Positions 4,668 to 53,671 are shown, counted from the stretch's first letter. The stretch is DNA of 56,369 nucleotides from Methanomassiliicoccales archaeon (GCA_028682915.1 JAJRAN010000135.1:1-56369); one strand, 5' to 3'. The notes: generated by a model not told the origin, from the letters alone. Made by a program: numbers and translations.

Positions 4668-5306
4668 CTAATCCGTTGCCTCGTCCCGGGTCGGTGCCTT
4701 GCTGCCGTCTGAGGGCGAGGCCTTCTGCTTGGGAGCCCTCAGCCGCCGCCAGCCGATATAAATCATGATGGCTGAGACGCTCAAGAGGACGACGCCGAGT
4801 ATTATCAGCTCGGGGCTGGCCCAATTCTCGCCGAAGAGCCTGTTCGCCCCTTCGGAGGGGTCTCCGCTGCTCATCTCCGACCCTCCGGACATGTATGTGG
4901 AGGCAGGAAGCCCGATGAGGATGGCGGCGATGGCGCCCACGACCATCAATAGCGTGAGGGAGAAGACTATTACGATCTTGGTGTTCTCTCCGGGCGAGAC
5001 GACGTCCCGGGCCTTCCAGGATAGCCCATAGTAGACGAAGCCGTGGTCCTCGAACCGGGTCACCAGCTCCCCCTCCTCGAGCTTCTTCAGGTGCCTGTGC
5101 ACCGCGGCCTTGTCTATCCCCAATTGGTCCGCGAGCTGCGCCACCGTCCTGCGCTGGGGATGCAAAGCCTTCAGTATCTCCATGCGGCTGTCCGAGGCCA
5201 GGGCGAAAAGGGCCTTCTTATCCAGCTCGACCTTCATCTTGCTTTCCCTGTCGTATGGATAGGAGGACGGGGTGCTTAACCCCTTGTCCGCCTCTGCTCC
5301 AATCAT
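4668..5306 (-). CDS. ArsR-type winged-helix transcription regulator fused to transmembrane helices
   Basis: 212 aa. wHTH block SDSRMEILKALHPQRRTVAQLADQLGIDKAAVHRHLKKLEEGELV, followed by two hydrophobic helices (IVIVFSLTLLMVVGAIAAILIGL and LIILGVVLLSVSAIMIYIGW). ATGA overlap (5303..5306) with the upstream beta-propeller gene. An alternative start is MKVELDKK at 5237. Confidence 0.65.
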   Translation of the reverse strand: MIGAEADKGLSTPSSYPYDRESKMKVELDKKALFALASDSRMEILKALHPQRRTVAQLADQLGIDKAAVHRHLKKLEEGELVTRFEDHGFVYYGLSWKARDVVSPGENTKIVIVFSLTLLMVVGAIAAILIGLPASTYMSGGSEMSSGDPSEGANRLFGENWASPELIILGVVLLSVSAIMIYIGWRRLRAPKQKASPSDGSKAPTRDEATD

Positions 5307-33847: not shown

Positions 33848-36800
33848 TCAGTCCTTCCTGGCGATTACTATTAGGAGGACACCCAGCATTAGCGCGCCGA
33901 TGAGGGCGATGGTTATGGCCAGGGTCCAGTTGAACTCCGTTACGACCTCTTGGACCACGATCATGGTGTTGCCCATGCTCATGTCCACGCTGGCCTCGGC
34001 CAAGGTCGGGTTCTCGTTGAACTTGACCGTGACCGTGTAGTTGTTCATGCCCAGGTCCATCGTGCCGTCCTCGGACTGCGCCCAACCGACGACCTCGTGG
34101 GTCACCGTGCCGTCCTCGCCAGTGTCATCGGCCCAGGCGATGTTGCCCAGGGCGTCAGTGGCTACGACGTAGGCTCCCGCGGTGCTGCGGTTGAACTTGT
34201 CCTTGGCGAGCACGGTTAGGTCGTACCAGACTCGGATTCCGGTCTTGACGACGTTCGCCATGTCCTCATTCACGATTACGGTTCCGCTGACCACCTGTGG
34301 GGTGAACTCGACCCTGCCGCCATAGTCCTCGACCGAGTTCGGGAAGGTAGCCGTCACGGAGTAGGGCTCCGCGCTAGCGTCCTTGCCGTTCGGGGTCTGG
34401 ACATATGACTTCACCAGTTGCGTGTACACTCCGTCCTCGTCGGTGGTCCCAGTGTAATTGTACAGGCCGTTGGCGCTCGCGAGTACTATGGTCGCACCAG
34501 GCACGCCGTGTCCCTGTGGGTCGGTGGCCTTGGTCATCAGGAAGAACTTCACGATCACGTTGGTCTGCACTACCACGCTGGTCGGACCATTCACGCTGAC
34601 GGTTGTCGGGTCTGGCTCGGCCGGGCTGAACTCGGCATCGTGTCCTGGGTAGCTGCTGGTGTCGACTCCGCCGAAGGACGCATTCACCTTGTACGGGTTC
34701 ATGCTAGTGTCCTTGCCGGCAGAGGTCAGCACAAAGCTGACCGCCCTGGTCGCGAAGATACCGTTCTCGCTGGTCTTGCCCTGGTTGACGACATCGCCCT
34801 TGGCATTCTTGACGGTCACTGGCACATTGGCCAGGGTGTTACCCCACGGGTCCTTGACCACGACGATCAAGGCGAAGGCAACCGTTATCTCGCTGTTCCC
34901 ATCGGCTTTGATCTTGCCGATGAGGGTCGAGTCCGTCACAGATACCTCGGAGTTCGCTGACCATATGGCGAAGTCGCCTGCTATGAGCGTCGCGTTGGAG
35001 ATCGAGGCTACACAGCCGTCCAGGAAGATGGCGTCATCGAGGACCTTGATGGTACCGCCGTTGACGGTTACCTCAGAGTTCTTAGCGACAATTCCATCAT
35101 ATACCGGTACTGGAAGGCTCATGTTGCGGATTATTCCATCCGAGCTCATGTAGGGCACTATCAGCGTGCGGGACAGGATGTCGTCGTTGAAGGTCAGCTC
35201 AGAGTCCACGACCATGACGCCCGTGGTCAGCATTCCGAACTCGTTACCGGAGGTGCTAACCACCGCGCCATCGATGGCAAAGACACCGATGTGACCGAAC
35301 AACAGCTCAGACAGCATCTCTGGGGAGATCCAGAGGTCCAGCATTGGCAGGTAAGTCATGCCGTCCATCATGCCCAAAATAGGCGCGAACTGGAACATGA
35401 CATCCACCAGGGTGCAGTACCCAATCTGGTTGTCCTCGATGCTCACCGCACCACCTTTTATGAAGATCTCCTTGTTGTTGAACAAGAAGATGTTGTCCTT
35501 GATGGTGCCAGTGGTCTGCTCCGTCAATACACCAGCTATGGAGTTCAGCGCGAACACGTTGTCTATTATCTGGCTCATGTCACCATCGCGAACGAACATA
35601 CCGATGGAGTTGTCAGCGATCATACAGTCCGTGATCACCGGCGATGCGCCATTTTCCACCAGGATACCATTCCTGTTGTTCATGGCTATCGTCGAGGACA
35701 TGATGACCGGCGCGCAGCCATCCACCACTACGCCGTTGCGCAGGTTGTACACTATCTGGCTGGTGAATATCTTGGCTGATGCCGTCGGCCCAAGGTAGAG
35801 CTCTAGCGCATCGGTCACAAGGACGTTCATGAAGTCCAAGCCACCGAACACGTTGAACTCATAGTAGTAAGCCGACTCCCCATATTCCGATAGCCAGAAG
35901 TCCACGTTGAAGGCCTTCAACATACCACCTGCATCGACGGTGATGGTCGCGAGACCGTCACTGTCGTCGCCGATGATCTCGAAGTCCACCAGCATGAACA
36001 GCACTAGGTTGCCGCCCTCCTGCACGGTGAGGTCGCCGTTGAAGATCACAGGGTTGTTGATAACGCTGCTCTCTCCATTGACGATCCAATCAACAGCGCT
36101 ATCGAACAGCAGACCGTACTCACCGTTGTTGTTGAACATGCCGTTTATCACGGTGACGCTGCTGTAGCTGTCGATCCACAGGCCGCTAAGGAAGTTGTTG
36201 CTGACCTGCGTATTCTCAATGGTCCCATAGCTGTCGTAGATCCACAAGCCGTTGGCGCCGCTCATGCTGAAGACGCAGTCCTGGATGAGGAAGCCATCGA
36301 CGTAATCGAATTGGCCGCCATCGACGACAGACATGGTCACGTCCACGTTGACGAACGATATATCATAGGAGTCTTCGACCCAGACGCCAAACGTGAATCC
36401 AGTGACCGGGGTGTCGCTGATCCAGATGTTCTCGCTGTTCATTACGAAGATGCCGACGCCGTACCTGTATCCGTCCGATTCAGGTCCGTCACCGCCATCC
36501 TCGCCTTCGACTGCCATCGCGCTCAGCACATTGCTGTAGGCGTCACCGTCATCGCTGAAGGTTATCGCCAAGCCACCGTAGGCGTTGCTGACCACATTGT
36601 AGGCTATGTCGAAGTACTGACAGTTGTCCACCCAGAGGCCGTACCCAGAGCCAACTCCATCTATGGTGTTCTCCATGATGTCGATGTACTCGAAGTAGCT
36701 CACGAAGATGCCGTTGAAGCCGACGTTCGTGATCTGGTTGTTGGTTATGCTCAGGTCTCCGGACAAGTAGTCCTCGAACTCGTCATATCCGCCGCCCAGA

Positions 36801-39800
36801 TAGATGCCCGACCCGCCGCAGTCCGTGAAGGTGTTGTCGGTGATGGTCAGGCCATCCACGTAGGCTCCCCAGAGTCCATCGGCCCCAGCGCCGGACACTT
36901 CATTGCCCATTACCAGCACATTGTAGGATGGCAGGATCTCCTCGACATAGTAATCGTAGCCCTCCACGATGATGCCGTAGGATTCCGTGTCCGACATGCA
37001 GGTGATGGTGTTGTCCAGGATGCTTCCGGTGCCGCTGTAGGCGCTGATTCCCTCATAGGCCGCGTTGGTCACCTGGTTGTTCTGGATGAGGAAGCCCGCT
37101 AGGTCCACCTCGATGCCATAGCCGCACGAGTCGACGGTGTTGTCGGTGATGGTCACCGGTACCGCCGCAATTGGCCAGCTGACGAAGTAGATGCCTCCAT
37201 CCGCCGCGCTCACAGTGTTCTCAGTGATGGTCGCAGTGCCAGAGACGCCCGCTCCCCAGTAGTACTCGCTGGAGTCGTCGTAGATCTCGATGTCGATGGC
37301 CCAGCAGTATTCGTCCCAACCGTCACCAGTGACGGTGTTGTTGTTGACGACTACCGCAGCGTCGATGGTCGCCCATGGCGATCCCCAGTTGTAGTCGGTG
37401 CCACGGTACAGGTCCGCGTACAGGCCCTCCTCGTATGCCTCTTGGATCACGTTGTCCAGGAGGTTCACGGTGGTCTGTACGACCGCAGTGGTCTCGCCGT
37501 AGGTGGCCCAGGACCATTCCTGGACCTCTAAGGCTGTGTAGGCGTACCAGACCTCGTTGCCCTGGAACAGCACATCGATGGTGGCCTCGGCAGATGCCGT
37601 GTCATCGTACCTGTATGGCAGGGTTCTTGCATCGGCCCCGCCACCAAGGTAGACCCCGTTACCGCCGTATGCGTACAACACGTTGTTGAGCACGGAGATG
37701 GTGGAGTCCAAGCTGCTGTAGGCCTGGCCTGTCGATGAGGTTGTCCATGCCTCTAGGTCCATCAGCCAACCGGAATACGTCCAGTACCAGCGGCTCAGAT
37801 AGTTGTCATAGACATCTATCGTGCCTCTGGAGGTTGCTACCGCGCTGGTGAACACACCATAGTAGTCCTCTTGCGCCAGGTTGCTGACGTAGACGGTGAT
37901 CCCATCATAATAGCCGCTGATGTCGTTGCCACTGACGTCGACCATGTAGGTTATGTCAGAAGTCGCGAAAACCTCGGTCTCGTAAGGCGGGAAGTAGTGC
38001 TCGAACATGGCGCTCGAGATGATGTACACATACACACCGTCAGTGTAGGCTTCGATGTCGTTGCCCTGTATGGTCACGACGGCGTTCGAACTGGTCGCGC
38101 CCCAGCTGTTGTACACGCTGGCCTCTGACCAGACGTATACGCCTTGGTATGCGTACCAGACGGTGTTGCCTACCACGTTGACGTTGAACTCCATGGTCCC
38201 GGTTCCGAGGCCCTCTGAGACCGGCTGATATGCTATCATTACCAGGCCGTAGTCAGCGATTCCGTAACCGAAGTCAAGGACGTTGTTCTCGTAGTTGGCG
38301 TCCACCGCAAGATCGGCTGTCGATCCGGCGTCGATGCTGGTCAGGGTCTGTGTGATGGTGGCATAGATACCATAACTGAAGTAGGTGTCCATGTCGCTGA
38401 TCATGTTGCCCTGGGCGTCGATGCTGAAGGCGGTCGCTATGCTTCCGCCTCCGGCGCTGAGTATCTCGTCATCGATGCCGACGGCTCCCAATCCTGGGAA
38501 CGAAGATTCCGTCAGGATGTTGTTCATTATGCTTACGTCATGCTGGACGCTCGACTCTCCATCGGCCGCGGTCATGTAGTATAGAACGCTATAGAACTGA
38601 GCCGGGCCGGGCCCGCCTATCGGGGGCGCGAACGGCGACCACATGCTTTCCATCCACGGATCGAGGTCTCCAGTGATGTTGTTGTCCTGGAAGATCGTCT
38701 CCGCGGTTATGCTCCATGTGGCCATCTCTGTCGCGATGTAGGTCTCCATATAGAACGTGCCGGCATGGATTCCCAGGTTGCCCTCGACCCTCTTGGTCAC
38801 GGACAGGGAATAGCTGCCTTCCAAGGCGCTGTCCTCTACGATGGTCCACATCGCGCCGCAGGATATTACCTGCTCGAAGACGCAATTGGTGATGGCCATG
38901 CTGCTAACGCCACCGTTTATTGGCGAATCCAATAGGCCGATGGCCAGCCCCATCACGAGATAGAAGTTCATGTTCGTGACCACGACGTTCATGGTGCCGT
39001 TCCAGTCCAGTAGCGACAACGCAGCCCAATAGCCGTACATGTTGCCGCCGATGTAGTTGAACGTGGTGTCGTTGATCACGACGGTCATTACTCCGTCAAC
39101 GCATTCGAAGAGCATACCGCCAGTCATGAAGTGGGTGACCGAGGTGTGAGTGACGATGGCCGTCAGGTTACCCTCGGCATGCACGAAGGAAGCGTATCCT
39201 GCGGACATGCGCTCCATGGTGAAGTGCACGGTCATCCAGTCATTGTCGTAGGCGTACCAGTTCCAAAGCCTGAGGTCCCAGTTCATGTTGCTGCCCGCGA
39301 AGTTGACACCATATGCGTAATCCGCTGGTGTGGATGGAGAGAACTTGGACTCCATCATGGCGTACCTGATCTCGGCGTCGCCACTCTCGAACAGCACGAT
39401 CTCGAATACGTTCTTCAGCTGCTCGCTGTCAGACTGCCACACATACCAGTGGAAGATGATCGCACCCTCCACCTTCTTGTAGCCGATGCCCGGGTACTCG
39501 CTGGTCGTCCAATATGGGTTCTGGGCGGCCGCGATCATGTTGGGGACACCAGGTCCGAAGTTGTAGTATGTGCTGTTCACATCGGAAACGCCAAACCCGA
39601 GCCAGCCATATACGGACATCGTGACCTGGTCATAGAGTTCACCATTGAACTCGAAGTTCCAGTCCAGGTCCACGGTCAGCCAGGAGTTGGTCGTCCACGC
39701 ATCGGGGTCGATCATCACGTAGTTGCTCTCGACCTCGCTTGGCAGGAACAGCTGGGCGTTATCGGCCATCGAGCCGTCGAAGTTGTCGCGCAGGTAGACT

Positions 39801-42800
39801 ACCCTTGCGTCATGCATCGCGTCGATGTGCACGCATCCCGAGCCTTGCCCGAGGAACTCATCGTCCACCAATTGGGCGGAGACGTCGTTCGCGGAATACA
39901 CATAGATGCCGAATTCCCCGAGCTCGAAGGTCGTGTTGTCCACGTTGACGGTCACGTCGCCGTTCATCAGGGTGCGCAGGTAGAATCCGAACCAGTTGTT
40001 CGACAGGAAGGATCCGGTCGCTTCTACCACCACGTCATCCTGATCCGCCTCCGCGAACAGTCCGAACTCGCTGCTGTTGAGGAGTTGGGCGTTCTGCAAG
40101 CTGACGGTTATCCCGCCCACTTGCGAGTGGATCTCGATGCCCTTGGTGTTGTTCTCGAAGGTCGTGTCCACCACGCTCAGGTCGACCGCCCCGGCCGCGT
40201 CAAGGAACATTCCAATATCACAATTGAAGATCCAGGACGGGTCGATGACGACGTCGATCGTGCCCATGGCTGCGATGACATCGAACCCTTTCTCTCCAGT
40301 GTTCGTGACCTGGACATCGGTCAGGTCAAGGACTACGTTGCCCATGGTCGATAGCACGAGGACGCCATTGATGCTGGTGTCGTTCAGGCTAACACCGGTC
40401 ATGGTCAGGTTGAGGTCTCCCACGGATTGGAGGACCACTGCGTTGCCGTTCCAGGTGTGATCGACCACGACGTTGTCGAACGTGGCCATCAGCTTGCCGT
40501 TCATGGAATAGGCAAGTATGCCGTTGTCCACATTGTCCGTGAGCACGGAGTTCGACACATCCAAGACCACATCTCCGACCAAGGAGGTGATATAGACCCC
40601 GTTGCTGGCGTTCACCAGGTTGAGGCCGTCGATGTTTACCTCGGTCGTTAGGTTGGAGAGCACGTATAGGCCATAGCCGTTCATTATGCTGTATGGCCAC
40701 ATCTCCAGGTTCGCCTGGCTCAGATCAACGCTGACTGCGCCCTCAGGGGCTTCCAGCCAGATCATGTTGACTGCTACCCAGCCGTTCCAGGGGATCTCGT
40801 ACTTCATCTTGATGTGCCGGTTGATGTCGTTCCCTACGAAGTTGATGTTACCCAGGTCGGAGTACAGCACGATGCCGCCGTGCAGGTTGGTGTCCAATCC
40901 ATTGAAGTTGGCTACGATGTTTCCAACCGCGTCAGCCTCGAATGCCGATAACTCCCACCAGGACGGGTACCAATATTCCGGCCCGGTCAGTATGTCGTTG
41001 TTCACGGACAGGTCAACAACGTTGGCGGTTATTGTGCCGGTTGCGCTCAGGAACACTCCCTGGATCACATTGTTGATCGACACGCCATTGGCGTTGAAGA
41101 CAATGTTCCCATTCGGCACAGAGACGTATGCGCCCATGTAGCTCATGTTGCTCCAGATATCCGTCATGGAGACGCTTGCCGAGTGGTTCGAGGAAACGTA
41201 TAGAACGCTGTTCATTACATTTCCAGAATTGTAATACCACGAGCCATCGGTGTACATCTGGATCTCTACGTTGGTCATGGAGGCTGTAACCCCGCCCTCA
41301 TCGGCGACCAGGTCGACTCCCGCCCTAGTTGAGTCCGCTCCAGTTACAAGGCCGTTCGTCCAGGCGAAGTTGACATTACCAAGCGTCGATTCGACGAAGA
41401 CGCAATAGTAGGTGTCGTTCATGTCAACGTCAACCATGGTCAGGGCGATATTACCCAAGGCCACAACGTAGACGCCATAGAGCGAGTGGTTGATCAACGT
41501 GGGGTCGATCCTCGCTGTTACCGCGCCGTTTGGTGCCATGGCAGATATGCCAGTTATCGCGCCCTCTATGGTCGCATCGGAGACGTCCAAGACGATGTTA
41601 CCATTGGCGGTTTCCACACTCAGACCTAGGAATAGGCCTGTAGCGTAGAACCTCGTTGCGGTGACTGTGGCAGTGGTGTTGACGTCACAATAGACGCTGC
41701 CTTCTCCGCCAATTAAGTAGTCCCCGATGATGTTGACGTCGGTCATGGTGATGGTTGCTCCACCCTCATATGACCAAACATACACACCATACCCTTTGAC
41801 GCTGGTCATGTTGACATTGTCTAGGGTTATTGTTATGGCGCCAAATGCTTGTGCATATACGCCATACTGCGTCAAATTCTCGAAGGTGACGTCGGATACG
41901 GCGATGTTGACCCCACCGAATGGGGCTAAAGCGAATGCACCGATGGTGGCGTTTTGGACCCTCATATTGGTCAAGGTCACTTGCGCCATACCAGATTGAC
42001 CAAGAGTCAACGCACCTGCAGCATAGGTCGTGCCAAGGTCGATGACATTACCCAATGTCACGCCGTTGACGCTAACGACCGCGTTAGCCATCTGAGATAC
42101 CGCCGCGGCGCAGGACTGAGCATAGTAGATGGCAGTCCCTCCGCTGATGCTTACCGATGCGTTCCAATAGGCATCGGCCAAGACTGCGGTGGTCATGCCC
42201 GCCGAGGGCGAGGTGTAGAGCCCGCCAACGACGCTGACCGAGGCGTTCTGCGCAGAGGTCGCTCTTATCGCGTTGCCGCCGACATTGGCCATGACGCAAT
42301 CCGTTATGGTGGCCACGATGTTACCATCATTGGTTACCAGAACCAGTCCATTGGCCGCGTCATTGATCACGAAACCCGACAAGGCCACGTTCATGTTGCC
42401 TATGGTCCTTGTGTAGGTTACCGCGTTGCCAGATATGAACTGGATGGTCCCGCTGATGGTCGCCGTGGTGTCCACCACTTGGACGCCGTTAGTGGCATAG
42501 CTGAGGGTGAAATACACCATCCTGGACCCGGACGGACCGGTTAAAATTATGCCGTCCCATGAGCCTGGTATGGTTCCGGTGGAGCTTGAGAATCTTATGG
42601 TACCACCGGATGCGCTGGTACCGTTAGCCCACAAATAACCCTCAACAGTCAAGCTTGAGCCATCGGTGAAATTGACGTACACACCGGGGTCGATCTTTAG
42701 CCAGACCCCGCTTTGTACGGTAATATCACCGTCAATCACATAGTTGTCCGCCGTCGTCAGCTGCGTATTCGTAGTGACGTCGGTGTTTATTGTTACTGTC

Positions 42801-42937
42801 GCCGCGCTCGCATGGCTGGTGCTAAGTAACAGCACCAACGCAAAAGCGAATACGAGCAACGCGACATAGAGCAATGCTCTCTTTCCAAGAACGCGACCTA
42901 TCGGTAGGGTGCGTTCAGTAACGTTTGCCGTATCCAT
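33848..42937 (-). CDS. Giant (~3,030 aa) cell-surface protein: signal peptide, dozens of right-handed parallel beta-helix (PbH1/NosD-like) repeats, Ig-like modules, C-terminal transmembrane anchor
   Basis: The uninterrupted ORF runs to 42964 (TTG). The ATG at 42937 is preceded by GAGGTG. Signal/anchor LLYVALLVFAFALVLLLSTSHASA. Recurring ~22-25-aa N/G/V/T-rich turns such as NGVYITS, NGILAYS and NGVLVLS. NosD-like block NVISNN..GI.L..S at aa ~2000-2500. Three CarboxypepD_reg-like modules follow. Ends LAITIALIGALMLGVLLIVIARKD. Confidence 0.8.
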   Translation of the reverse strand: MDTANVTERTLPIGRVLGKRALLYVALLVFAFALVLLLSTSHASAATVTINTDVTTNTQLTTADNYVIDGDITVQSGVWLKIDPGVYVNFTDGSSLTVEGYLWANGTSASGGTIRFSSSTGTIPGSWDGIILTGPSGSRMVYFTLSYATNGVQVVDTTATISGTIQFISGNAVTYTRTIGNMNVALSGFVINDAANGLVLVTNDGNIVATITDCVMANVGGNAIRATSAQNASVSVVGGLYTSPSAGMTTAVLADAYWNASVSISGGTAIYYAQSCAAAVSQMANAVVSVNGVTLGNVIDLGTTYAAGALTLGQSGMAQVTLTNMRVQNATIGAFALAPFGGVNIAVSDVTFENLTQYGVYAQAFGAITITLDNVNMTSVKGYGVYVWSYEGGATITMTDVNIIGDYLIGGEGSVYCDVNTTATVTATRFYATGLFLGLSVETANGNIVLDVSDATIEGAITGISAMAPNGAVTARIDPTLINHSLYGVYVVALGNIALTMVDVDMNDTYYCVFVESTLGNVNFAWTNGLVTGADSTRAGVDLVADEGGVTASMTNVEIQMYTDGSWYYNSGNVMNSVLYVSSNHSASVSMTDIWSNMSYMGAYVSVPNGNIVFNANGVSINNVIQGVFLSATGTITANVVDLSVNNDILTGPEYWYPSWWELSAFEADAVGNIVANFNGLDTNLHGGIVLYSDLGNINFVGNDINRHIKMKYEIPWNGWVAVNMIWLEAPEGAVSVDLSQANLEMWPYSIMNGYGLYVLSNLTTEVNIDGLNLVNASNGVYITSLVGDVVLDVSNSVLTDNVDNGILAYSMNGKLMATFDNVVVDHTWNGNAVVLQSVGDLNLTMTGVSLNDTSINGVLVLSTMGNVVLDLTDVQVTNTGEKGFDVIAAMGTIDVVIDPSWIFNCDIGMFLDAAGAVDLSVVDTTFENNTKGIEIHSQVGGITVSLQNAQLLNSSEFGLFAEADQDDVVVEATGSFLSNNWFGFYLRTLMNGDVTVNVDNTTFELGEFGIYVYSANDVSAQLVDDEFLGQGSGCVHIDAMHDARVVYLRDNFDGSMADNAQLFLPSEVESNYVMIDPDAWTTNSWLTVDLDWNFEFNGELYDQVTMSVYGWLGFGVSDVNSTYYNFGPGVPNMIAAAQNPYWTTSEYPGIGYKKVEGAIIFHWYVWQSDSEQLKNVFEIVLFESGDAEIRYAMMESKFSPSTPADYAYGVNFAGSNMNWDLRLWNWYAYDNDWMTVHFTMERMSAGYASFVHAEGNLTAIVTHTSVTHFMTGGMLFECVDGVMTVVINDTTFNYIGGNMYGYWAALSLLDWNGTMNVVVTNMNFYLVMGLAIGLLDSPINGGVSSMAITNCVFEQVISCGAMWTIVEDSALEGSYSLSVTKRVEGNLGIHAGTFYMETYIATEMATWSITAETIFQDNNITGDLDPWMESMWSPFAPPIGGPGPAQFYSVLYYMTAADGESSVQHDVSIMNNILTESSFPGLGAVGIDDEILSAGGGSIATAFSIDAQGNMISDMDTYFSYGIYATITQTLTSIDAGSTADLAVDANYENNVLDFGYGIADYGLVMIAYQPVSEGLGTGTMEFNVNVVGNTVWYAYQGVYVWSEASVYNSWGATSSNAVVTIQGNDIEAYTDGVYVYIISSAMFEHYFPPYETEVFATSDITYMVDVSGNDISGYYDGITVYVSNLAQEDYYGVFTSAVATSRGTIDVYDNYLSRWYWTYSGWLMDLEAWTTSSTGQAYSSLDSTISVLNNVLYAYGGNGVYLGGGADARTLPYRYDDTASAEATIDVLFQGNEVWYAYTALEVQEWSWATYGETTAVVQTTVNLLDNVIQEAYEEGLYADLYRGTDYNWGSPWATIDAAVVVNNNTVTGDGWDEYCWAIDIEIYDDSSEYYWGAGVSGTATITENTVSAADGGIYFVSWPIAAVPVTITDNTVDSCGYGIEVDLAGFLIQNNQVTNAAYEGISAYSGTGSILDNTITCMSDTESYGIIVEGYDYYVEEILPSYNVLVMGNEVSGAGADGLWGAYVDGLTITDNTFTDCGGSGIYLGGGYDEFEDYLSGDLSITNNQITNVGFNGIFVSYFEYIDIMENTIDGVGSGYGLWVDNCQYFDIAYNVVSNAYGGLAITFSDDGDAYSNVLSAMAVEGEDGGDGPESDGYRYGVGIFVMNSENIWISDTPVTGFTFGVWVEDSYDISFVNVDVTMSVVDGGQFDYVDGFLIQDCVFSMSGANGLWIYDSYGTIENTQVSNNFLSGLWIDSYSSVTVINGMFNNNGEYGLLFDSAVDWIVNGESSVINNPVIFNGDLTVQEGGNLVLFMLVDFEIIGDDSDGLATITVDAGGMLKAFNVDFWLSEYGESAYYYEFNVFGGLDFMNVLVTDALELYLGPTASAKIFTSQIVYNLRNGVVVDGCAPVIMSSTIAMNNRNGILVENGASPVITDCMIADNSIGMFVRDGDMSQIIDNVFALNSIAGVLTEQTTGTIKDNIFLFNNKEIFIKGGAVSIEDNQIGYCTLVDVMFQFAPILGMMDGMTYLPMLDLWISPEMLSELLFGHIGVFAIDGAVVSTSGNEFGMLTTGVMVVDSELTFNDDILSRTLIVPYMSSDGIIRNMSLPVPVYDGIVAKNSEVTVNGGTIKVLDDAIFLDGCVASISNATLIAGDFAIWSANSEVSVTDSTLIGKIKADGNSEITVAFALIVVVKDPWGNTLANVPVTVKNAKGDVVNQGKTSENGIFATRAVSFVLTSAGKDTSMNPYKVNASFGGVDTSSYPGHDAEFSPAEPDPTTVSVNGPTSVVVQTNVIVKFFLMTKATDPQGHGVPGATIVLASANGLYNYTGTTDEDGVYTQLVKSYVQTPNGKDASAEPYSVTATFPNSVEDYGGRVEFTPQVVSGTVIVNEDMANVVKTGIRVWYDLTVLAKDKFNRSTAGAYVVATDALGNIAWADDTGEDGTVTHEVVGWAQSEDGTMDLGMNNYTVTVKFNENPTLAEASVDMSMGNTMIVVQEVVTEFNWTLAITIALIGALMLGVLLIVIARKD

Positions 42938-43247
42938 GTCTCGCCACCTCAGGAAGAGGTACAAGAAATTCCTCCCGAACCAAAGCGTTTAAATTGTAGA
43001 GGTATTATGGATTTGCCTATTACTTAAACCTTCTTCCAGCATAGGGAAAAATCCCGCCTTTGAGCCATTTAACGAAAAACCGTCTGGCTAGTCCATCCGC
43101 TTCGGATAATGATTCCAATGGATATTCGGCAGAACATAATTCCTGCGAAGACTTGTTATCGGAATGCGAAATGGCGCATACGAAGCGTCGTGACATCTTC
43201 GCGGATTCTGAGAAAGGTTAAGTGAAAAGAACGAAATATCGGCTCTC

Positions 43248-45950: not shown

Positions 45951-46274
45951 TCAGAGCGCCTTCTTCAGTACCGCCTCTATCTCTTCCTTAGGCACGAGCC
46001 CGACGATGCTCTCGACCACCTCTCCATCCTTTATGAAGAGCAGGGTGGGAATGGCCAGCACCTTGAATCGTTTGACCAGCTCGGGGTTGCTGTCGCAGTC
46101 CATCTTCCCGAAGGCGGCCTTGGCCGAGTTCTCCTCAGCCACCTTGTCGAATATCGGGGCCATCTGCCTACAGGGCCCGCACCAGTTGGCCCAGCAATCG
46201 ATCACCAGCTTGGGGTGTTCCCTGGCGATGCCCTCATAGCTATCCTTTGTGACCTCGAGCGTGTGCTTGGACAT
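45951..46274 (-). CDS. trxA: Thioredoxin
   Basis: 107 aa. Active site WANWCGPCRQMAP, with a typical length and ending. Confidence 0.9.
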   Translation of the reverse strand: MSKHTLEVTKDSYEGIAREHPKLVIDCWANWCGPCRQMAPIFDKVAEENSAKAAFGKMDCDSNPELVKRFKVLAIPTLLFIKDGEVVESIVGLVPKEEIEAVLKKAL

Positions 46275-46389: not shown

Positions 46390-47109
46390 TCATTTCTTGC
46401 GGCGCTTGCTAGCAGGTCGCTTGTAGACGAAATAGGCGACGAGCAAGAAGATCATTATGCCACCGATGAGGATGGCGTTCATGCTCCCGTAGTCGCCCAT
46501 GCCGACCCAGACGGTCTGAGAGAATATCGTCCCGCCCGATTCGAAACGGACGAACTGACCGTTGGGGTCCAGCTGCACCGAGACCTCGTGCTGCCCCTTG
46601 CCCACGCTCTCGGTCCAATTGTAGATGACCACCTTTGACCCGCTAGCCGTCAAATCTATCTCCCTCTCTTCTAACAGCTTGCCGTCGGCATAGAAGTAGA
46701 CGGGCACGCCAGACAGGGCGACCGACCCTTGGTTCACGACCTTGGCAGTGATGACGATGGGCACGACCGATTTGACGTAATAAGGCATGGTCGCGACCAT
46801 CTTCGCCCCCGCGTTCGATGTGGAGGTGACGTTCACCACGATGGTCATTTCGGTGGCGGCGCTCGGGGCCGTGAAGTTGAACTGGAACACGCCACTGGAC
46901 GACTTGCCATTGGCTGGCGATATGATGGCATCGGCCACGTTCTGCCCTTCGACGGTGACGATGAAGGAGTAATTGCCTCCAAACTCCTCCGCGGGACCGC
47001 CCACGGCGGTAACGAAGTAGGTATTGGTCTCGTCGATGGCCACGGTCGACTTGCCCTCGACCTTGATATGGATAGGTGCGGTCGCATCAACCATCGGCGA
47101 CGCGAGCAT
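46390..47109 (-). CDS. CARDB/Ig-like domain surface protein with C-terminal membrane anchor (N-terminus unresolved)
   Basis: 239 aa from the first ATG. Two beta-sandwich modules (the second is VVNQGSVALSGVPVYFYADGKLLEEREIDL, CARDB-like). Ends AILIGGIMIFLLVAYFVYKRPASKRRKK. In-frame codons upstream of the ATG encode a signal-peptide-like stretch (see findings). Confidence 0.55.
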   Translation of the reverse strand: MLASPMVDATAPIHIKVEGKSTVAIDETNTYFVTAVGGPAEEFGGNYSFIVTVEGQNVADAIISPANGKSSSGVFQFNFTAPSAATEMTIVVNVTSTSNAGAKMVATMPYYVKSVVPIVITAKVVNQGSVALSGVPVYFYADGKLLEEREIDLTASGSKVVIYNWTESVGKGQHEVSVQLDPNGQFVRFESGGTIFSQTVWVGMGDYGSMNAILIGGIMIFLLVAYFVYKRPASKRRKK

Positions 47110-47147
47110 GACTCCTCCCAGTAAAAGCAGGAGGAGGGCGATGACGC

Positions 47148-50100
47148 TCAGCGCTTTTTGCGTTTTAGCACCCCCTTCTGTATGATCACCAGGATCAGAA
47201 TGGTCGACACCGCAAAGAGCAGACCTAGCAGGGCCAAGGTAAAGAGCGGGATCTCAGGGGCCTGCGTGGAGACGCCGTTCCCAGTCACCGATAGCCCGCC
47301 TGGAATGTTGAACGCGGGCAACGACGGCTCGAACTCCAACACGGTGTAAGTTCCGGACGATCCCTTTGAGGCCGCGTTTAGAACTACCGTCACCTGCCCA
47401 TCGGGGTTCTCGCGGATGGGCGTGAGGCGAAGCTCGAAGTTGCTCTTGCTGCCAGACGACAGCAGGGCGGTGAGGTTGTTTGACCAGGTCCCTCCGCTCA
47501 GGCGGACCTGCGCCTCCCAACCCCATGTGGCAAGCTCTTCGGAGTTGGTGACCGTAATGACATAGGTGTCATCGACGTTCCCAGTGTTGGTCAGGGACAT
47601 CTTGTACTCATAGTCCTCGCCCGTGGTGGCCTGAGCCGAGACGTAACTCATGCTAACGGAATAGCTCGGGACGATGCCGACATCCATGTTGACCGTGTCC
47701 GACTTGGTGCTGTGGGATGACAATGCCCTTATGGTGACGCTCTGGTGGCTCACCTTCGCGTTCGCCGGAGTGGTTATGGTCACGGTCACCAGCTGAGAGT
47801 TGGACGTCCCGAAGCCCACGGAAACGGGATTCTGCGAGAAGGCCACGGTCCACCCTGACGCCGCTGTCTGGACGCTTAAGGTGTAGGAGTCCGCAGAATT
47901 GCCGGTGTTGATCACTCTGAGGTTGTACGAGACGCTCTCGCCCGCCTCCACGGTACGTCTCTCCGTGGTGTCCCATTGGAGGTCCACGCCATAATCGGCC
48001 ACCTTGACCAGGTTGATGATGCTGCTCTGGCTGTCCTGAAGGTTCAGAGTGAACTCGGAGCTGTACTCCGCGCTCGCTCCCTGCTCCACGCCACTTCCGG
48101 TGGCTCTGACCTGATAGACGTCTGGTGGCAGGTAGACCTCGAAGCTTCCATCGGCTGCGCTCGTGAGCGTCTTGTAGTTCTCGCTGGAGAACTCGAGGAC
48201 GGCTGGACCGGCGATCCCGCCCAGCTGGGTGACTCCGAAGTACCTGACCCCTGGCACTAGATCGAAGTTCAAATTGGTGCTCGTGTATGGCGCAATGTCG
48301 ATCGTGCCCATGAACACGGCAGGTCCGCTAATCTCCTTGATGTAGATGGAGTAGTTACCAGGGGCCAGTTCGGTCGTATAGCCTGAGGCGGTACCGGTGG
48401 CGTTGGTCCAGATTGCCGTGCTTGAGCTCGGGACGAACTCAAGGGTAGCGGCCACGTTCTGGCCGGATACCCTTACCGTTCCAGATATCGTGCTGTTGTC
48501 AAGCTGCTTCTGCACCGGGACGGTCAACGACTTGGTGGAGTTGACAACGAAGCTAAGGGAGCCTTGGTACCGGACGTAGCGGTCCTTGGTTTCGAGGACC
48601 TCTTGCGTCCTGTAATCGACCGTGGCCACATAGCTTCCCGCAGGCAGATAGGTGGTGAAGGACCCAGCGACGCTCGTGGTAAGCGTGAGATCGCCTCCTA
48701 AGACGTTCGATATCACCACCGGGGCGATGGCGGTAATCGTTTTACCGTCGGCCTTCACAGTGCCTTGGATGAAGTAGGCCACCTGGTTCACCAGCTCGAT
48801 AGAGTTGGCGCCGTTGACGATGGTCTCGTTCACCAGCGTGGCATAACGAGATCCGAGTTTTTCGATGAGGACGTAGAAGCTATAGTTCCCTGGCTGCAAG
48901 TAGGTCGAGAACGTTCCCGTCGCCCTGAGCTCCTTGGAGTCGGGGCCGGAGATGGTGATCTTTGCCTGAGCGCTACGGTCGGGGGTGATCGCCCCGGTGA
49001 CCAGGTAACGCTTGACCAATTCGATATTGAGCAAGGATGGGTCCGAGCCCACGCTCACCGTGAGCGAAGCCCCGTATTGGTACTTCGAGACGTTGTTGCC
49101 GGCCACCACATCCTGGTCCGCAAGGACCTGGTAGACACCAGGCTTAAGCTGGATGCCGATCAAGCCCCCTGCAGAGCTGGTCGCTGTCAGGGACTGGGCC
49201 GAGCCGCTGGTCGCATCGAAGGTGATGTTGACGCCCGGCATGGTGGCTCCCTCGAAGGTGACGACTGCGGTGACGGTACGGTTGACGGCGACCATTTGAA
49301 CGTTCTCGGTCTTCGAGCCCGAGAGCTGGGAGAAGGATTTCGTATGAGGGAAGTAGCCGTCCAGGTCGACCGCCAAATCATAGTTCTTGCCTGGGGCCAG
49401 CTGGAACTCGTACTTCCCGCTGCTGTCCGTCTCCTTGACTATGACCCGACCGTCGACGTCCATTACCTGGACCGGTACGCCAGACATAGCCTCCGCAGAG
49501 TCCATTACCGAGTCGCCATCGGCGTCGTACCAGACTGTACCAGATATCCTGGCGGAGCTGGAAAGGCTCAAGGTCAACGGGCCGGAGCTGGTCACGGTCA
49601 CATCGCCCCAATAGGCCCCTCCCGACTCTCCGTTGTAAACGAAGTATACATCGTTCGGTATGAGCAACCGGAACTGGCCGGTGGAGTTGGTGATGGCGCT
49701 GATGACCGCCCCATTGGACCGGGATTCGAAACGGATGGTCAAGCCGCTAAGGACAGAGGTGCCCTGGACATTGCCTTGGACGTAGTAGGCGGGGACCAGC
49801 AGGGGGTTGAGGGACAGCGTTCCTGAGCTCTTCGCCAGTTGGTTCAGGTAGGCGAAGTCGATTCCGTTCAGGCTGGCCATGATGTGCATGTCGTATTGAC
49901 CGGCGGGTATGCTGGCGGAGTATCGGCCCGCGGAATCGGCTTGGACCACGTAGGTCGATTCTTCATTGTATATGGAGATCGTGGCGTTGGAAGCCACAAT
50001 CCCTGTGGAGAGCCAGGCTTGTCCATTGATGGTCATGACGTCCTTCACCGTGAGCGATTCGCTTACGGTCTCGCCGTTGGTGAGGTTGTACTTCAGCTGC

Positions 50101-53100
50101 CCCAAGGTGGTTCCGCTGACGCCTGAGAGAAGCTCGTAGGTGCCATAGACCAGGTCATTGAAGGCGAACTTGCCCGAGCTGTCAGTGGTCGCGGTTGTCG
50201 TCGTCCCATTGGTGTAATCGACCAGCTCCACCTCGAACCCTGCGGCCTTGGTGCCGTCCGTGTACGAGATCGTGCCTTTGATGGTGGCTGGCTTGATGGC
50301 TATGTCCACCGTGGTGTCGGCTAATGGCATCAATTGAACGCTCTTAGGGGTGGTGGGATGGCCATCGACGATGGCATAGACCTGGGCATCGACAGCGGGA
50401 ACGTAGCTTATCAAATACCCGCTATCCGTCGAAGTCGTCTGCGCCTTGAAGCCTAGGTCCTGGTTCTCGGCGACGACTGTAGCACCCGAGATGATGGTGT
50501 CCGTTCCACTGGTGTATGCTCCGTCACCGTCGACGTCCCAATAAACATTGCCATTCAGGTTAGTGCTGGCTATGGACATGTCGCCGTTGATGTGATACTC
50601 GGTTTGCCTCATCGCCTGGGAGTAGCTTACGGTCGTTTTTGTGCGGGTGAGCTCTGTGCCCATCAGGGTTCTCTTGTCGAGCTCGCCGTACGAATATACT
50701 ATCTTGACCTCCCCGAAGGGGGCGATCAAGGAGTAGCGTCCCTCTGAATCGGTCTGGACGTAATCATGCGGTATGCCGTACTCGTCGAGCACGGTCACCC
50801 ATAGTCCCGGATAGGGGAGGCCGGAGTCGGTGGTCACTTGCCCTTCGATGATGGCTCCATCGTAATATTGCACGAACACGATGCCCTGTGCCAGGTCGTA
50901 GGCGGACACGTCTACCACGCCCATTGCCTCACCAGCGGCGATCTGTTTCTGCAGCTCGAGGGCCTCATCGTAGGATATGGCCTTCCAGGCATCGGTGTGG
51001 TTGGCCACCTCCTCCTCTGGGTATGGGTTGTAATATGCGGTCTTGTAGACCATGCGGAAGTGGGTCTGGTTCCAGGCTTGCATTGGGGGCAGGCTAGCTA
51101 ATGAACCGGAGAAGCCAGGTATGCCCTGCTCGCTATAGCCGATGTCGTAGGGACCATAACCCATGAAAGCGCGGTAAAGCATGGTCTGATAGAACAGATC
51201 CGTGTACACGATCGAATAGTCGGTTATGGTCATGTCCGAGGTGACCTCGTCTAGCGGTATCGTCTCCTCGACGTTGCTGGCGGTGATCACCGTAGCGTAG
51301 ATCTGATAGAAGTCCACGGGGCTGTTACTTACTTCCGATATTTCGTGATCCGACAGCTTGCATGGAGCATAGAAGATGTTGTATCCTGTCGCAGAGAAGG
51401 GGAAGAGGCGCGAGTCGATCGCGAAGTAGCCGATGTCCGAGCCAGTGATCTCGCGTATATCATGATACAGGGACGCGCATTGCTCCTCACCGATCTTGGC
51501 TATCTCCACCCTGGAGGCGACGTATTTCGCGTTGAGGGCGGAGAGGTCCTGGGTGAAATTGCCGTAGACGTCAGGGTTCGCCAGGACGACCGATATGTAG
51601 GGTGAAGGGTTCTCCAGGATGCTCCTGAGCTCGACCATGTCGACGCCGTGGGATACCATGGCGTCGGAGATGGCGGATCCCTCACTGATGTCTCCGTATT
51701 CGATGCATCTGGTGATCAGCATGGCGATGGCTTGGTTCTCGTCAGTGCAGGTGATGTAGTTGCCTGCGAACTGGTAGCCGTTCTGGAAGTTATCAGCCAC
51801 CGTGGGGTGGTCTCCAGCCTGCACCGCCTCGAACCCATAGTCCCACCAGGACAGGAAGGCAGGTCGTTCAGTCACGGCGAGATCGACGTCTTGATCACTA
51901 TACCAATCCCATGCCGCCGGGAAGTATTGAGATGGCAAGGGCAGGCTGTAGCCGAAGGCCCCCAAGTACCAGGGCGCTTTATAGTCCGTCGGTCTCAGGA
52001 CCTGGGGCATGGCGTCGTATATCTGGTTATCATAAGTTTCCTTGTACTCGGAGGGTATGCCAGCGTCCACGGCCCCCCATACGTTGGGCACAAGCACGAG
52101 CATGAGCACGAAGAACACGGCCAAGACGTACTTCACGTTGAAGACCTTCCTCAACCAGGTGAACGGGTTCTTGGTCATGCTCGCCGAGGACACGCCCTTG
52201 GGGTAGTCCTGGAATCGAACGGCGTCGATTATGAGGACCAGGACCCAGGCACCCATGACCGCGAAGGCGGGGGCGGCGTTGAACAGGAACCTGCCGGCGG
52301 AGGCGGCCATGAATATGGCGGTGGCCGTCCAGACCACCAGGAAGACGAAGTAGGCGGCGAGGTTCTTCGGTATCTTTATCAGCGCATATCCGATGCCGGC
52401 GAGAGCAAGCCAGAAGGTCACGATTCCGAAGGACATGGCCAAGGTGGAGAAGTTGGGGGCCTGGGCCTCGGATATGGTGGAATAGAGCTTGCTCTTCACC
52501 AGGTAGCCTTGCCCGGTGATTATTGCGTCGAACAGGTTGGGCGAGACGAAGGAGATGACCGTCAGGCCAACTACCGCGATGATGATGAAGATTGGCAATA
52601 TCAGGACCCATGGCAGGTCCCGGGTGAGGGTGAACATCGCTCCCACCACCATCATGGCCAGGAACAGGATGAGCGGAACAACGAACCAGGTATACCAATA
52701 ATCCATCACCCAGTACAATGGGAATATGAGCAAGAAGGCCAGTCCGAGCATGATGGATACGTTGATCCAAACTCCCATCGAATCTGTCTTCTTGAAGAGG
52801 TTGATCATGAGCTGGACCAGGAAATATACCAGCACGATGATCAGGATGTACATGTATCCAGTCCAGATGAATGCCACCGCGGCCACGCACACTCCCGCGA
52901 GGGCCGCATAGATGACCGAAACCTGATTGGCCTTGAAGTATTGACCTAGGCCGGAGGTGATGGCCTTGCGCCCCCTCCAGTTGGAGACCCACTTATCCCC
53001 CACGATGCTCTTCAAGCTCATCAGTAGGAAGTAGAAGCAGAACACCACGAGGAAGAGTACCATGGCGTCGTGGTCCGCCTCCGATGCCACGGAGCGCTCG

Positions 53101-53636
53101 ATGTGCGCCGGCATCATGGCGAATAGGAAGGCCGCGGCCAGTCCCACCTTCCTTCCGAAGGCCTGCCTGCCGATCATGTAGACTGGAATGCAGGTCAGGG
53201 CGCCCCAGAAGGCCGTGGCGGAGACCAAGGTGAAGCCAGTGCTGTCAGATACAGGGCTACCTGTGACACTGGACATGACCATACCGGTCACTGCCACCGA
53301 CCAGTCGAAGAGCGGTGGGCGTGGGTTCCTCAGATCCCATGGATAGTTGAGCAGGGTATCTGTGTAGAGGTGGTGGCCCGTTTGAGTGACATAGTCGATG
53401 ACGCGCTCGTGGTAGTATGAGTCGGAACCTCCCGAGACGAGGTAGCCGTTGTCAATCGAGGGGCCAAGGACAAAATAGCTCCTTACGAAGAAGGCCAGCA
53501 GCACTATGAAGACCAGGATGGCTGCTGTGCGCCAATTCTGCCTCAGCCAGGTGCTAGACCCTTTGCCGAGACCGCTGAGAAAATTCAGGCGGCTCCGCTT
53601 CGTGGGGCCACCTGACCCTCCCTCAATAGATGCCAT
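47148..53636 (-). CDS. aglB: Archaeal oligosaccharyltransferase AglB (STT3 family) fused to a ~1,240-aa Ig-like repeat extension and a C-terminal TM anchor
   Basis: ATG at 53636 (the track uses TTG 53639), with AGGAGA 6 nt upstream. Multi-pass N-terminal domain with the first-loop motif GGSDSYYHER. WWDYG motif encoded at 51834..51848. After aa ~925 there are about eleven CarboxypepD_reg/SdrD-B-like modules and two CARDB/NEW3-like modules. Ends LFTLALLGLLFAVSTILILVIIQKGVLKRKKR. Confidence 0.85.
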   Translation of the reverse strand: MASIEGGSGGPTKRSRLNFLSGLGKGSSTWLRQNWRTAAILVFIVLLAFFVRSYFVLGPSIDNGYLVSGGSDSYYHERVIDYVTQTGHHLYTDTLLNYPWDLRNPRPPLFDWSVAVTGMVMSSVTGSPVSDSTGFTLVSATAFWGALTCIPVYMIGRQAFGRKVGLAAAFLFAMMPAHIERSVASEADHDAMVLFLVVFCFYFLLMSLKSIVGDKWVSNWRGRKAITSGLGQYFKANQVSVIYAALAGVCVAAVAFIWTGYMYILIIVLVYFLVQLMINLFKKTDSMGVWINVSIMLGLAFLLIFPLYWVMDYWYTWFVVPLILFLAMMVVGAMFTLTRDLPWVLILPIFIIIAVVGLTVISFVSPNLFDAIITGQGYLVKSKLYSTISEAQAPNFSTLAMSFGIVTFWLALAGIGYALIKIPKNLAAYFVFLVVWTATAIFMAASAGRFLFNAAPAFAVMGAWVLVLIIDAVRFQDYPKGVSSASMTKNPFTWLRKVFNVKYVLAVFFVLMLVLVPNVWGAVDAGIPSEYKETYDNQIYDAMPQVLRPTDYKAPWYLGAFGYSLPLPSQYFPAAWDWYSDQDVDLAVTERPAFLSWWDYGFEAVQAGDHPTVADNFQNGYQFAGNYITCTDENQAIAMLITRCIEYGDISEGSAISDAMVSHGVDMVELRSILENPSPYISVVLANPDVYGNFTQDLSALNAKYVASRVEIAKIGEEQCASLYHDIREITGSDIGYFAIDSRLFPFSATGYNIFYAPCKLSDHEISEVSNSPVDFYQIYATVITASNVEETIPLDEVTSDMTITDYSIVYTDLFYQTMLYRAFMGYGPYDIGYSEQGIPGFSGSLASLPPMQAWNQTHFRMVYKTAYYNPYPEEEVANHTDAWKAISYDEALELQKQIAAGEAMGVVDVSAYDLAQGIVFVQYYDGAIIEGQVTTDSGLPYPGLWVTVLDEYGIPHDYVQTDSEGRYSLIAPFGEVKIVYSYGELDKRTLMGTELTRTKTTVSYSQAMRQTEYHINGDMSIASTNLNGNVYWDVDGDGAYTSGTDTIISGATVVAENQDLGFKAQTTSTDSGYLISYVPAVDAQVYAIVDGHPTTPKSVQLMPLADTTVDIAIKPATIKGTISYTDGTKAAGFEVELVDYTNGTTTTATTDSSGKFAFNDLVYGTYELLSGVSGTTLGQLKYNLTNGETVSESLTVKDVMTINGQAWLSTGIVASNATISIYNEESTYVVQADSAGRYSASIPAGQYDMHIMASLNGIDFAYLNQLAKSSGTLSLNPLLVPAYYVQGNVQGTSVLSGLTIRFESRSNGAVISAITNSTGQFRLLIPNDVYFVYNGESGGAYWGDVTVTSSGPLTLSLSSSARISGTVWYDADGDSVMDSAEAMSGVPVQVMDVDGRVIVKETDSSGKYEFQLAPGKNYDLAVDLDGYFPHTKSFSQLSGSKTENVQMVAVNRTVTAVVTFEGATMPGVNITFDATSGSAQSLTATSSAGGLIGIQLKPGVYQVLADQDVVAGNNVSKYQYGASLTVSVGSDPSLLNIELVKRYLVTGAITPDRSAQAKITISGPDSKELRATGTFSTYLQPGNYSFYVLIEKLGSRYATLVNETIVNGANSIELVNQVAYFIQGTVKADGKTITAIAPVVISNVLGGDLTLTTSVAGSFTTYLPAGSYVATVDYRTQEVLETKDRYVRYQGSLSFVVNSTKSLTVPVQKQLDNSTISGTVRVSGQNVAATLEFVPSSSTAIWTNATGTASGYTTELAPGNYSIYIKEISGPAVFMGTIDIAPYTSTNLNFDLVPGVRYFGVTQLGGIAGPAVLEFSSENYKTLTSAADGSFEVYLPPDVYQVRATGSGVEQGASAEYSSEFTLNLQDSQSSIINLVKVADYGVDLQWDTTERRTVEAGESVSYNLRVINTGNSADSYTLSVQTAASGWTVAFSQNPVSVGFGTSNSQLVTVTITTPANAKVSHQSVTIRALSSHSTKSDTVNMDVGIVPSYSVSMSYVSAQATTGEDYEYKMSLTNTGNVDDTYVITVTNSEELATWGWEAQVRLSGGTWSNNLTALLSSGSKSNFELRLTPIRENPDGQVTVVLNAASKGSSGTYTVLEFEPSLPAFNIPGGLSVTGNGVSTQAPEIPLFTLALLGLLFAVSTILILVIIQKGVLKRKKR

Positions 53637-53671
53637 CAACTATCTCCTAGGAATTGACAACAGATTACAAA

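Follow-up and report, generated by a model that had tools for sequence, protein, structure and literature searches.

Why should the oligosaccharyltransferase (OST) of an archaeon be made as part of a polypeptide of more than 2,000 residues? Among the enzymes of archaeal N-glycosylation AglB is, to our knowledge, the only universal one, and the structural and biochemical work on it has all been done on forms of 600-1,050 amino acids (aa). The question is raised by a 56,369-nucleotide stretch of DNA from a Methanomassiliicoccales archaeon (GCA_028682915.1, JAJRAN010000135.1:1-56369), referred to here at its full length as the window, in which an initial annotation had described an AglB continued in frame by a long array of immunoglobulin (Ig)-like domains and closed by a second membrane anchor. 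The open reading frame (ORF) was indeed found to be single and uninterrupted (Table 1), and every motif quoted in that annotation (GGSDSYYHER, WWDYG, the NTGN..D.Y modules and KRKKR) lay where it had been placed. The database copy of the protein, P0001, is 100% identical and begins one codon later, at the ATG at 53636, which is likely to be the true start and gives 2,162 aa. Numbering in P0001 takes this ATG as residue 1, and is therefore one lower than the ORF numbering, in which the TTG at 53639 is residue 1.

The N-terminal part of the protein had been assigned to AglB/STT3, and comparison of both sequence and fold supports this for the first ~918 residues. The Pfam family STT3 (PF02516) matches residues 62-518 above its cut-off (E 1e-13); an alignment of the first 939 residues with A. 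fulgidus AglB-L (AfAglB-L) was obtained as a PDB sequence match (5GMY, 3WAJ; E 3e-8); and the catalytic domain gives weak Pfam matches to AglB_core-like and STT3-PglB_core models. The best NCBIfam match is archaeo_STT3 (TIGR04154), over residues 40-644, with 213 bits against a cut-off of 450. In the alignment with AfAglB-L, D72 of GGSDSYY pairs with the external-loop-1 Asp (GGNDPWY), D188-H-D190 (DHD) with the DxH motif (NDHH), and WWDYG with WWDYG. D72, D188-H-D190, T387-I-x-E390 and W597WDYG601 are invariant in an alignment of 42 homologues with 35-86% identity, the third of these motifs being T387-I-S-E390 in the window protein. At roughly the distance past WWDYG where the DK or MI motif of the Ser/Thr pocket would be expected there is an invariant segment, D741..F745-P746 (AIDSRLFPF), which is neither DxxK nor MxxI exactly and which lies outside the solved-structure alignment. 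An AlphaFold2 (AF2) model of residues 1-1110, based on a 16-sequence alignment and with a mean predicted local distance difference test score (pLDDT) of 72, shows ~13 long helices and, after them, a mixed alpha/beta domain. Foldseek matched this model best to AfAglB-L (7E9S, 3WAK and 5GMY; E 3e-21 to 3e-19), then to eukaryotic STT3A/B, and then to PglB. The window protein is thus an AglB (GT66) by membership, outside the archaeosortase A-associated subfamily. Because these four catalytic motifs are kept and the predicted fold matches that of AfAglB-L, the enzyme is judged to be intact, and it is very probably active as an oligosaccharyltransferase. That AglB enzymes end with the catalytic domain, which had been taken as established, remains true of the characterised ones; the Thermoplasmatota form extends well beyond it.

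The extension was at first counted by eye as about eleven modules plus two, and AF2 together with per-domain Pfam searches arrives at the same number, namely D1-D11 followed by D12 and D13. D1 begins at about position 50882 and joins the catalytic domain without a linker. The AF2 model of residues 963-2162 (18 sequences, mean pLDDT 85) is all-beta until a linker of ~27 residues and a transmembrane (TM) helix. Pfam recognises five CarboxypepD_reg stretches (E 5e-37), SdrD_B, and FixG_C/NEW3 near residue 1900, and both D2 and D6 bear DxDGDG-type motifs of the SdrD_B kind. D12 (residues 1882-1986) is NEW3/FixG_C-like and D13 (1992-2103) weakly CARDB-like; the NTGN..D.Y modules are RVINTGNSADSYTLSV, at ORF residues 1908-1923, and SLTNTGNVDDTYVITV, at 2015-2030. 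Over the CARDB/NEW3-like region the NCBIfam model choice-of-anchor T reaches 62 bits, under its cut-off of 70. D3, the sole domain tried, scarcely matches the other domains of the same protein (phmmer E at least 0.002), so that a recent tandem-repeat expansion can be rejected as the origin of the array. The matches of the whole array in Foldseek were generic multi-Ig proteins at TM-scores no higher than 0.26, and none was a specific structural analogue.

At its C-terminus the protein has, as had been noted, a hydrophobic segment (ORF residues 2135-2153, by hydropathy) followed by KRKKR, and the same ending, a hydrophobic helix and then a basic tail, is seen in 318 of the 322 relatives that reach at least 1,900 aa. 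The earlier description of the enzyme as pinned at both ends fits the sequence: the basic N-terminus and a GT-C fold of the 13-TM type place the catalytic domain outside, and KRKKR after the last helix agrees with the positive-inside rule. The inferred topology accordingly has the N-terminus inside, the catalytic domain outside and KRKKR inside, with both ends in the cytoplasmic membrane. A PGF-CTERM/archaeosortase sorting signal was also considered and was rejected, since the NCBIfam scan of the window protein gave no PGF-CTERM model at E ≤ 0.1, and no conserved sortase-type or PGF-like motif precedes the C-terminal helix in the 42 homologues.

The giant form had been presented as an oddity of this genome. 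It turns out instead to be the norm for Thermoplasmatota. A homologue search returned more than 100 proteins of 2,117-2,227 aa, with 96-100% coverage and 35-86% identity. A search of 1.8 billion cluster representatives with the enzyme domain by itself gave relatives of which nearly all, to as low as about 30% identity, were 2,050-2,770 aa long, and more than 300 full-length relatives in about this size range have the same architecture. The species-representative genomes of GTDB contain 411 relatives, and an unbroken ORF of 2,050 aa or more is present at 69 loci besides the window. Among the proteins of at least 1,900 aa, all except one of 322 have WWD[YWF]G within the first 900 residues. The family extends through Methanomassiliicoccales and Methanomethylophilaceae, and includes cultured Thermoplasma, Ferroplasma, Oxyplasma, Cuniculiplasma, Caldiplasma and Aciduliprofundum, and M. 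luminyensis. There is no stop codon or frameshift in the ORF near 50.9 kb, and orthologues are consistently fused, none being split among more than 400 loci. Judged from these sequences, the giant layout is the standard form of AglB across Thermoplasmatota, and the window protein is a further, ordinary member of a large family whose members carry annotations as different as STT3, AglB, GT39 and 'carboxypeptidase regulatory-like'. Public databases have contained such sequences from the earliest Thermoplasma genomes onward, from species sequenced since 2000. No paper describing the giant architecture was found in a search of non-subscription full-text literature.

Both the array and its length appear to be maintained by selection. 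Relative to three relatives at 76-80% identity, the ratio of non-synonymous to synonymous substitution rates (dN/dS) is 0.09-0.12 in the enzyme part and 0.13-0.17 in D1-D11. Column conservation is about 0.65 in the enzyme and D1, and about 0.45 in D2-D13, so that D1 is as conserved as the catalytic domain; few parts of the protein are as well conserved, or as confidently folded, as the junction (residues 900-1010). Members can still be aligned over their full length when array identity is as low as about 26%. From WWDYG to the C-terminus the median distance is 1,551 aa, and in 87% of 329 anchored members it lies between 1,450 and 1,600 aa. On these comparisons the array is evidently under purifying selection, with its length and the identity of the domain at each position conserved across Thermoplasmatota. 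Low dN/dS, fixed length, position-specific domains and a conserved D1 are the grounds on which the array is judged to be functional.

The gene directly after aglB in essentially every locus with downstream DNA encodes a small type-I membrane protein with a CARDB domain, the exception being the second paralogue of one metagenome-assembled genome (MAG). Most loci have NTGA at the junction, the start codon of this partner sharing bases with the stop codon of aglB. The window has CTGA here, the CTG at 47151-47149 overlapping the aglB TGA, and the signal peptide of the partner, LSVIALLLLLLGGVMLASPMVDATA, is encoded only if translation starts at that CTG or at another non-canonical codon; starting at the first ATG (47109) would drop it. 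About 20 related Methanomassiliicoccales loci also have CTGA at the junction, and others have ATGA, GTGA or TTGA. This arrangement suggests that the two genes are coupled by termination and reinitiation at a non-canonical start codon. The partner is not a duplicate of D12/D13, for which BLASTP found nothing significant. Nor does it appear to be a homologue of an OST subunit: against the PDB it matched only anonymous CARDB structures, and Pfam profile searches likewise gave generic CARDB matches only. The MAG in question, MFD01299.bin.2.50 (Methanomassiliicoccaceae), encodes two full-length giant AglB paralogues, one on CAVYIY010000008.1 (L010) and one on CAVYIY010000006.1 (L015); the latter, second paralogue is without pyrF, CARDB or thioredoxin neighbours.

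It had further been proposed that the extension is rich in N-x-S/T sequons and might be its own substrate. For the window protein this does not hold, since its extension has 14 sequons where 12.7 are expected from composition (z = 0.5), and without enrichment the idea of self-modification loses its basis in this protein. Across the 42 homologues there is an excess of about two-fold, with a mean of 24 sequons in the extension against 13 expected, and z values of up to 7. Two sites occur in every one of the 42 sequences, N856-x-T (WNQTHF) in the catalytic domain and N1714-x-T (LDNST) where D10 begins, and are candidates for conserved self-glycosylation or structural sites.

Table 1. Features of the window and members of the giant AglB family. 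Positions are counted from the first nucleotide of the window.
Feature	Position	Strand	Details and basis
Giant AglB ORF	47148..53639	-	2,163 codons from TTG at 53639; stop codon 47148-47150
Multi-pass GT-C membrane domain	52077..53636	-	P0001 residues 1-520; Pfam STT3, hydropathy, motifs, AF2 helices, Foldseek to AfAglB-L
GGSDSYYHER	53403..53432	-	ORF residues 70-79; external loop 1
DHD	53067-53075	-	in GT-C membrane domain
TISE	52467-52478	-	external loop 5
Extracellular catalytic globular domain	50883..52076	-	P0001 residues 521-918; motifs, PDB alignment, Foldseek, weak Pfam matches
WWDYG	51834..51848 (exact)	-	within catalytic domain
N856-x-T	about 51063-51071	-	residues 856-858
D1-D11, prealbumin/CarboxypepD_reg-like beta-sandwich domains	47997..50882	-	P0001 residues 919-1880; AF2 pLDDT about 85-90, per-domain Pfam
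N1714-x-T	about 48489-48497	-	residues 1714-1716
D12 and D13, NEW3/FixG_C/CARDB-like Ig domains with NTGN..D.Y motifs	47328..47993	-	P0001 residues 1882-2103; AF2, Pfam
Linker of ~27 aa (low confidence), C-terminal TM helix and cytoplasmic tail GVLKRKKR	47151..47327	-	TM = P0001 residues 2131-2154; hydropathy, AF2
CARDB partner gene	46390..47151	-	signal peptide, Ig-like domain, CARDB domain, C-terminal TM, basic tail
Thioredoxin	45951-46274	-	107 aa; WCGPC; without signal peptide; directly downstream of CARDB gene
Beta-helix giant	33848-42964	-	3,038 aa; N-terminal signal/anchor, Beta_helix/NosD repeats, C-terminal prealbumin/Ig-like domains, C-terminal TM, ends ARKD
Likely secreted/surface protein	14479-17145	+	888 aa; InhA-like MAM domain
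Likely secreted/surface protein	5303-7183	-	626 aa; Beta_propel family
Giant AglB, M. luminyensis			2,173 aa
Giant AglB, Thermoplasma volcanium GSS1			TVG1271204; 2,076 aa
Giant AglB, Oxyplasma meridianum			2,113 aa
Giant AglB, Aciduliprofundum sp. MAR08-339			2,081 aa
Acidiplasma-type short-array relatives, anchored			P0315/P0236/P0314; 1,425-1,442 aa
Shorter unanchored relatives			P0250/P0294 (1,290 and 1,339 aa), P0254, P0256-P0265

Purifying selection and conserved length point to an unrecognised structural or organisational role of the oligosaccharyltransferase in cells that depend on a glycoprotein coat and have no S-layer, and they agree with the earlier suggestion that the enzyme may scaffold the envelope. 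The explanation that best joins these observations, favoured here with modest confidence, is that a catalytically competent AglB is made as one double-anchored polypeptide whose array is a structural element of the coat. In the uncultured Methanomassiliicoccaceae archaeon from which the window derives, a single polypeptide would have two membrane attachments, and its enzyme part would carry out general N-glycosylation of surface proteins. The array would form a fixed-length arch or folded stalk between the two membrane ends, with an estimated span, from an assumed rather than computed ~4 nm per domain, of about 45-50 nm when fully extended or about 20-25 nm in a folded-back state. It would be, probably along with the CARDB partner, a structural part of a membrane-anchored glycoprotein coat that replaces an S-layer in these wall-less cells, where it would hold the catalytic site inside the coat or keep a defined space around it, and it may itself be glycosylated at the conserved sequons. 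A ruler-like structural component of the coat, placed around the enzyme that glycosylates that coat, is the best guess that these data allow. M. alvi, of the same order, is without a wall or S-layer and has a single membrane (PMC10673518). In two Thermoplasmatales, C. divulgatum and O. meridianum, an unordered exterior layer of protein, about 20 nm thick, stands in place of an S-layer (PMC12448462); O. meridianum and Cuniculiplasma sp. both encode the giant form.

Several points weigh against such a role. The evidence for it consists wholly of conservation and topology. The predicted template modelling score (pTM) of the array is 0.41, at which AF2 gives no defined inter-domain arrangement and so does not favour an arch over a rod. 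Adjacency of the CARDB gene is by itself weak evidence, because the whole neighbourhood is syntenic; the overlap of start and stop codons is stronger. Finally, in Acidiplasma only ~860 aa follow WWDYG, although the TM anchor is kept, and some Thermoplasmatota relatives of ~1,100-1,340 aa have few beta-sandwich domains and lack the C-terminal TM helix, which implies that the full array is not indispensable in every lineage.

Three other roles for the extension were weighed, and each is considered less likely than a structural part in the coat. The one that survives best, though it is still judged unlikely, is that the array and the CARDB partner handle substrates, acting as a holdase, lectin or landing platform beside the active site that would capture nascent secreted polypeptides or lipid-linked glycans, as non-catalytic luminal subunits do in the eukaryotic enzyme. 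Such a platform would account well for a D1 that is conserved like the catalytic domain and adjoins it without a linker, and for a partner that appears to be translationally coupled; moreover CarboxypepD_reg, NEW3 and CARDB folds are, by their Pfam descriptions, common in carbohydrate-active proteins. A binding platform would not, however, need as many as thirteen domains under a length constraint, none of the domains matches a known lectin or chaperone family, and the partner resembles anonymous CARDB structures rather than any OST subunit.

More doubtful is the idea that the protein is a polyprotein, cleaved after translocation into an AglB of normal size and a C-terminally anchored surface glycoprotein of ~130 kDa in 1:1 ratio. 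Taken alone the extension does resemble a typical Thermoplasmatota surface protein, with its beta-sandwiches, C-terminal TM helix and basic tail, a layout that recurs in two neighbours, the 3,038-aa beta-helix protein and the CARDB protein; and some relatives lack the anchor or have shorter arrays. The junction at which such a cut would fall is nevertheless highly conserved and confidently folded over residues 900-1010, it offers neither a flexible linker nor a conserved cleavage motif, and the absence of split orthologues among more than 400 loci also argues against two separable products.

It would be more surprising still if the C-terminal helix were inserted in an outer membrane, so that the array would bridge the intermembrane space of species with two membranes. 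M. luminyensis is reported to have two membranes, according to a statement in PMC10673518 that cites other work, and the extended array is estimated to span tens of nanometres; against this, the same architecture occurs in single-membrane, wall-less Methanomethylophilaceae (the family of M. alvi), Thermoplasma and Ferroplasma (PMC10673518), and the basic tail fits ordinary stop-transfer insertion in the cytoplasmic membrane. Least of all can be said for an artefact of assembly, frameshift or gene calling that joined two genes, which the 69 independent uninterrupted loci, the same protein in complete genomes of cultured species and purifying selection across the junction make almost inconceivable.

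The significance of the giant form lies less in one gene, which is unsurprising in itself, than in a feature of Thermoplasmatota, both of their N-glycosylation and of their envelope, that has apparently gone unexplored. A whole phylum carries an AglB of double size that adds 13 beta-sandwich domains outside the cell and a second anchor, and that has a partner which seems to be translationally coupled; this phylum is mostly wall-less and includes both the classic wall-less Thermoplasma and the gut methanogens of the Methanomassiliicoccales. The proposed role is open to test because cultured and partly tractable species encode the giant form (M. luminyensis, T. acidophilum/volcanium, Cuniculiplasma and Oxyplasma), and cryo-electron tomography of envelopes from such cultured species already exists. 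The short Acidiplasma-type and unanchored relatives may offer natural length variants that bear on the idea of a ruler.

The order RNA polymerase-L7Ae-NusA-radical SAM-pyrF-aglB-CARDB protein-thioredoxin-translin-purD is common to the window, M. luminyensis and a distant Thermoplasmatota MAG. The thioredoxin, whose position is kept in about half of the related loci, is presumably cytoplasmic. It was considered as an Ost3/6-like subunit and rejected, as the Pfam model OST3_OST6 gave 24 bits, below the cut-off of 27 and within the thioredoxin fold. In M. luminyensis (L001, 18775 onward) a counterpart of the beta-helix giant of Table 1 occupies the syntenic position. Apart from these genes and those of the two likely secreted or surface proteins in Table 1, the window carries housekeeping genes, among them ones for the aconitase family, photolyase, GatD/GatE, PurD, HypB and NFACT. 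It contains no agl gene cluster for glycosylation, and the neighbours of aglB are themselves housekeeping genes.

Of the known systems, AfAglB-L (3WAJ, 3WAK, 5GMY, 7E9S) is the closest to the enzyme part, sharing the GT-C domain, the extracellular catalytic domain that follows it, and all the aligned motifs, at only about 14% identity in the structural alignment. Its 868 aa go no further than the globular domain with the peripheral beta units, whereas the window protein continues for ~1,240 aa more, with 13 beta-sandwich domains and a second TM anchor. The archaeosortase A-associated AglB of TIGR04154, although the best NCBIfam match, remains far under its cut-off, and the scan reported no PGF-CTERM signal in the window protein. 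With the SdrD B-repeat and CarboxypepD_reg arrays of bacterial adhesins the extension shares the DxDGDG motifs of D2 and D6, matches in Pfam and the PDB, and a beads-on-a-string stalk; it differs from them in having neither an adhesin head nor a sortase signal, in being attached to an enzyme, in not being recently expanded, and in its low dN/dS.

The remaining comparison is with eukaryotic NOMO, a subunit of the BOS complex of the endoplasmic reticulum (ER) that has 12 prealbumin-like domains, a C-terminal TM helix and a short tail, and that has been proposed as an ER-sheet spacer (PMC8327139, PMC11186639). NOMO2 (9C7V) is the best PDB sequence match of the extension profile, with E 5e-23 and collinear over about 4-5 domains, and the two agree in domain clan, in a length of about 1,250 aa, and in a single C-terminal TM helix with a short tail. 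NOMO is, however, a separate protein with its own signal peptide and no fusion to STT3. Domain by domain, the models NOMO_3rd, NOMO_5th and NOMO1-like_2nd reach 14-16 bits against cut-offs of 27, while NOMO_5th totals 45.6 bits over the full length with no single stretch passing, and Foldseek on the array did not single out NOMO. Orthology or membership is weakened by these scores. Because the generic CarboxypepD_reg model far outscores the NOMO-specific ones at each domain, the similarity is placed at clan level, and the resemblance is best regarded as analogy together with clan-level homology. NOMO acts as a length-dependent spacer near secretory machinery (PMC8327139, PMC11186639), and it is tempting to go further and to see in the array an archaeal ruler of NOMO type, of common ancestry with the eukaryotic protein, whose fixed length between two membrane-bound ends would set the thickness of the ~20 nm unordered exterior layer. 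This stronger proposal is regarded as improbable; if it were true, the fusion would link an oligosaccharyltransferase physically to a NOMO-like spacer.

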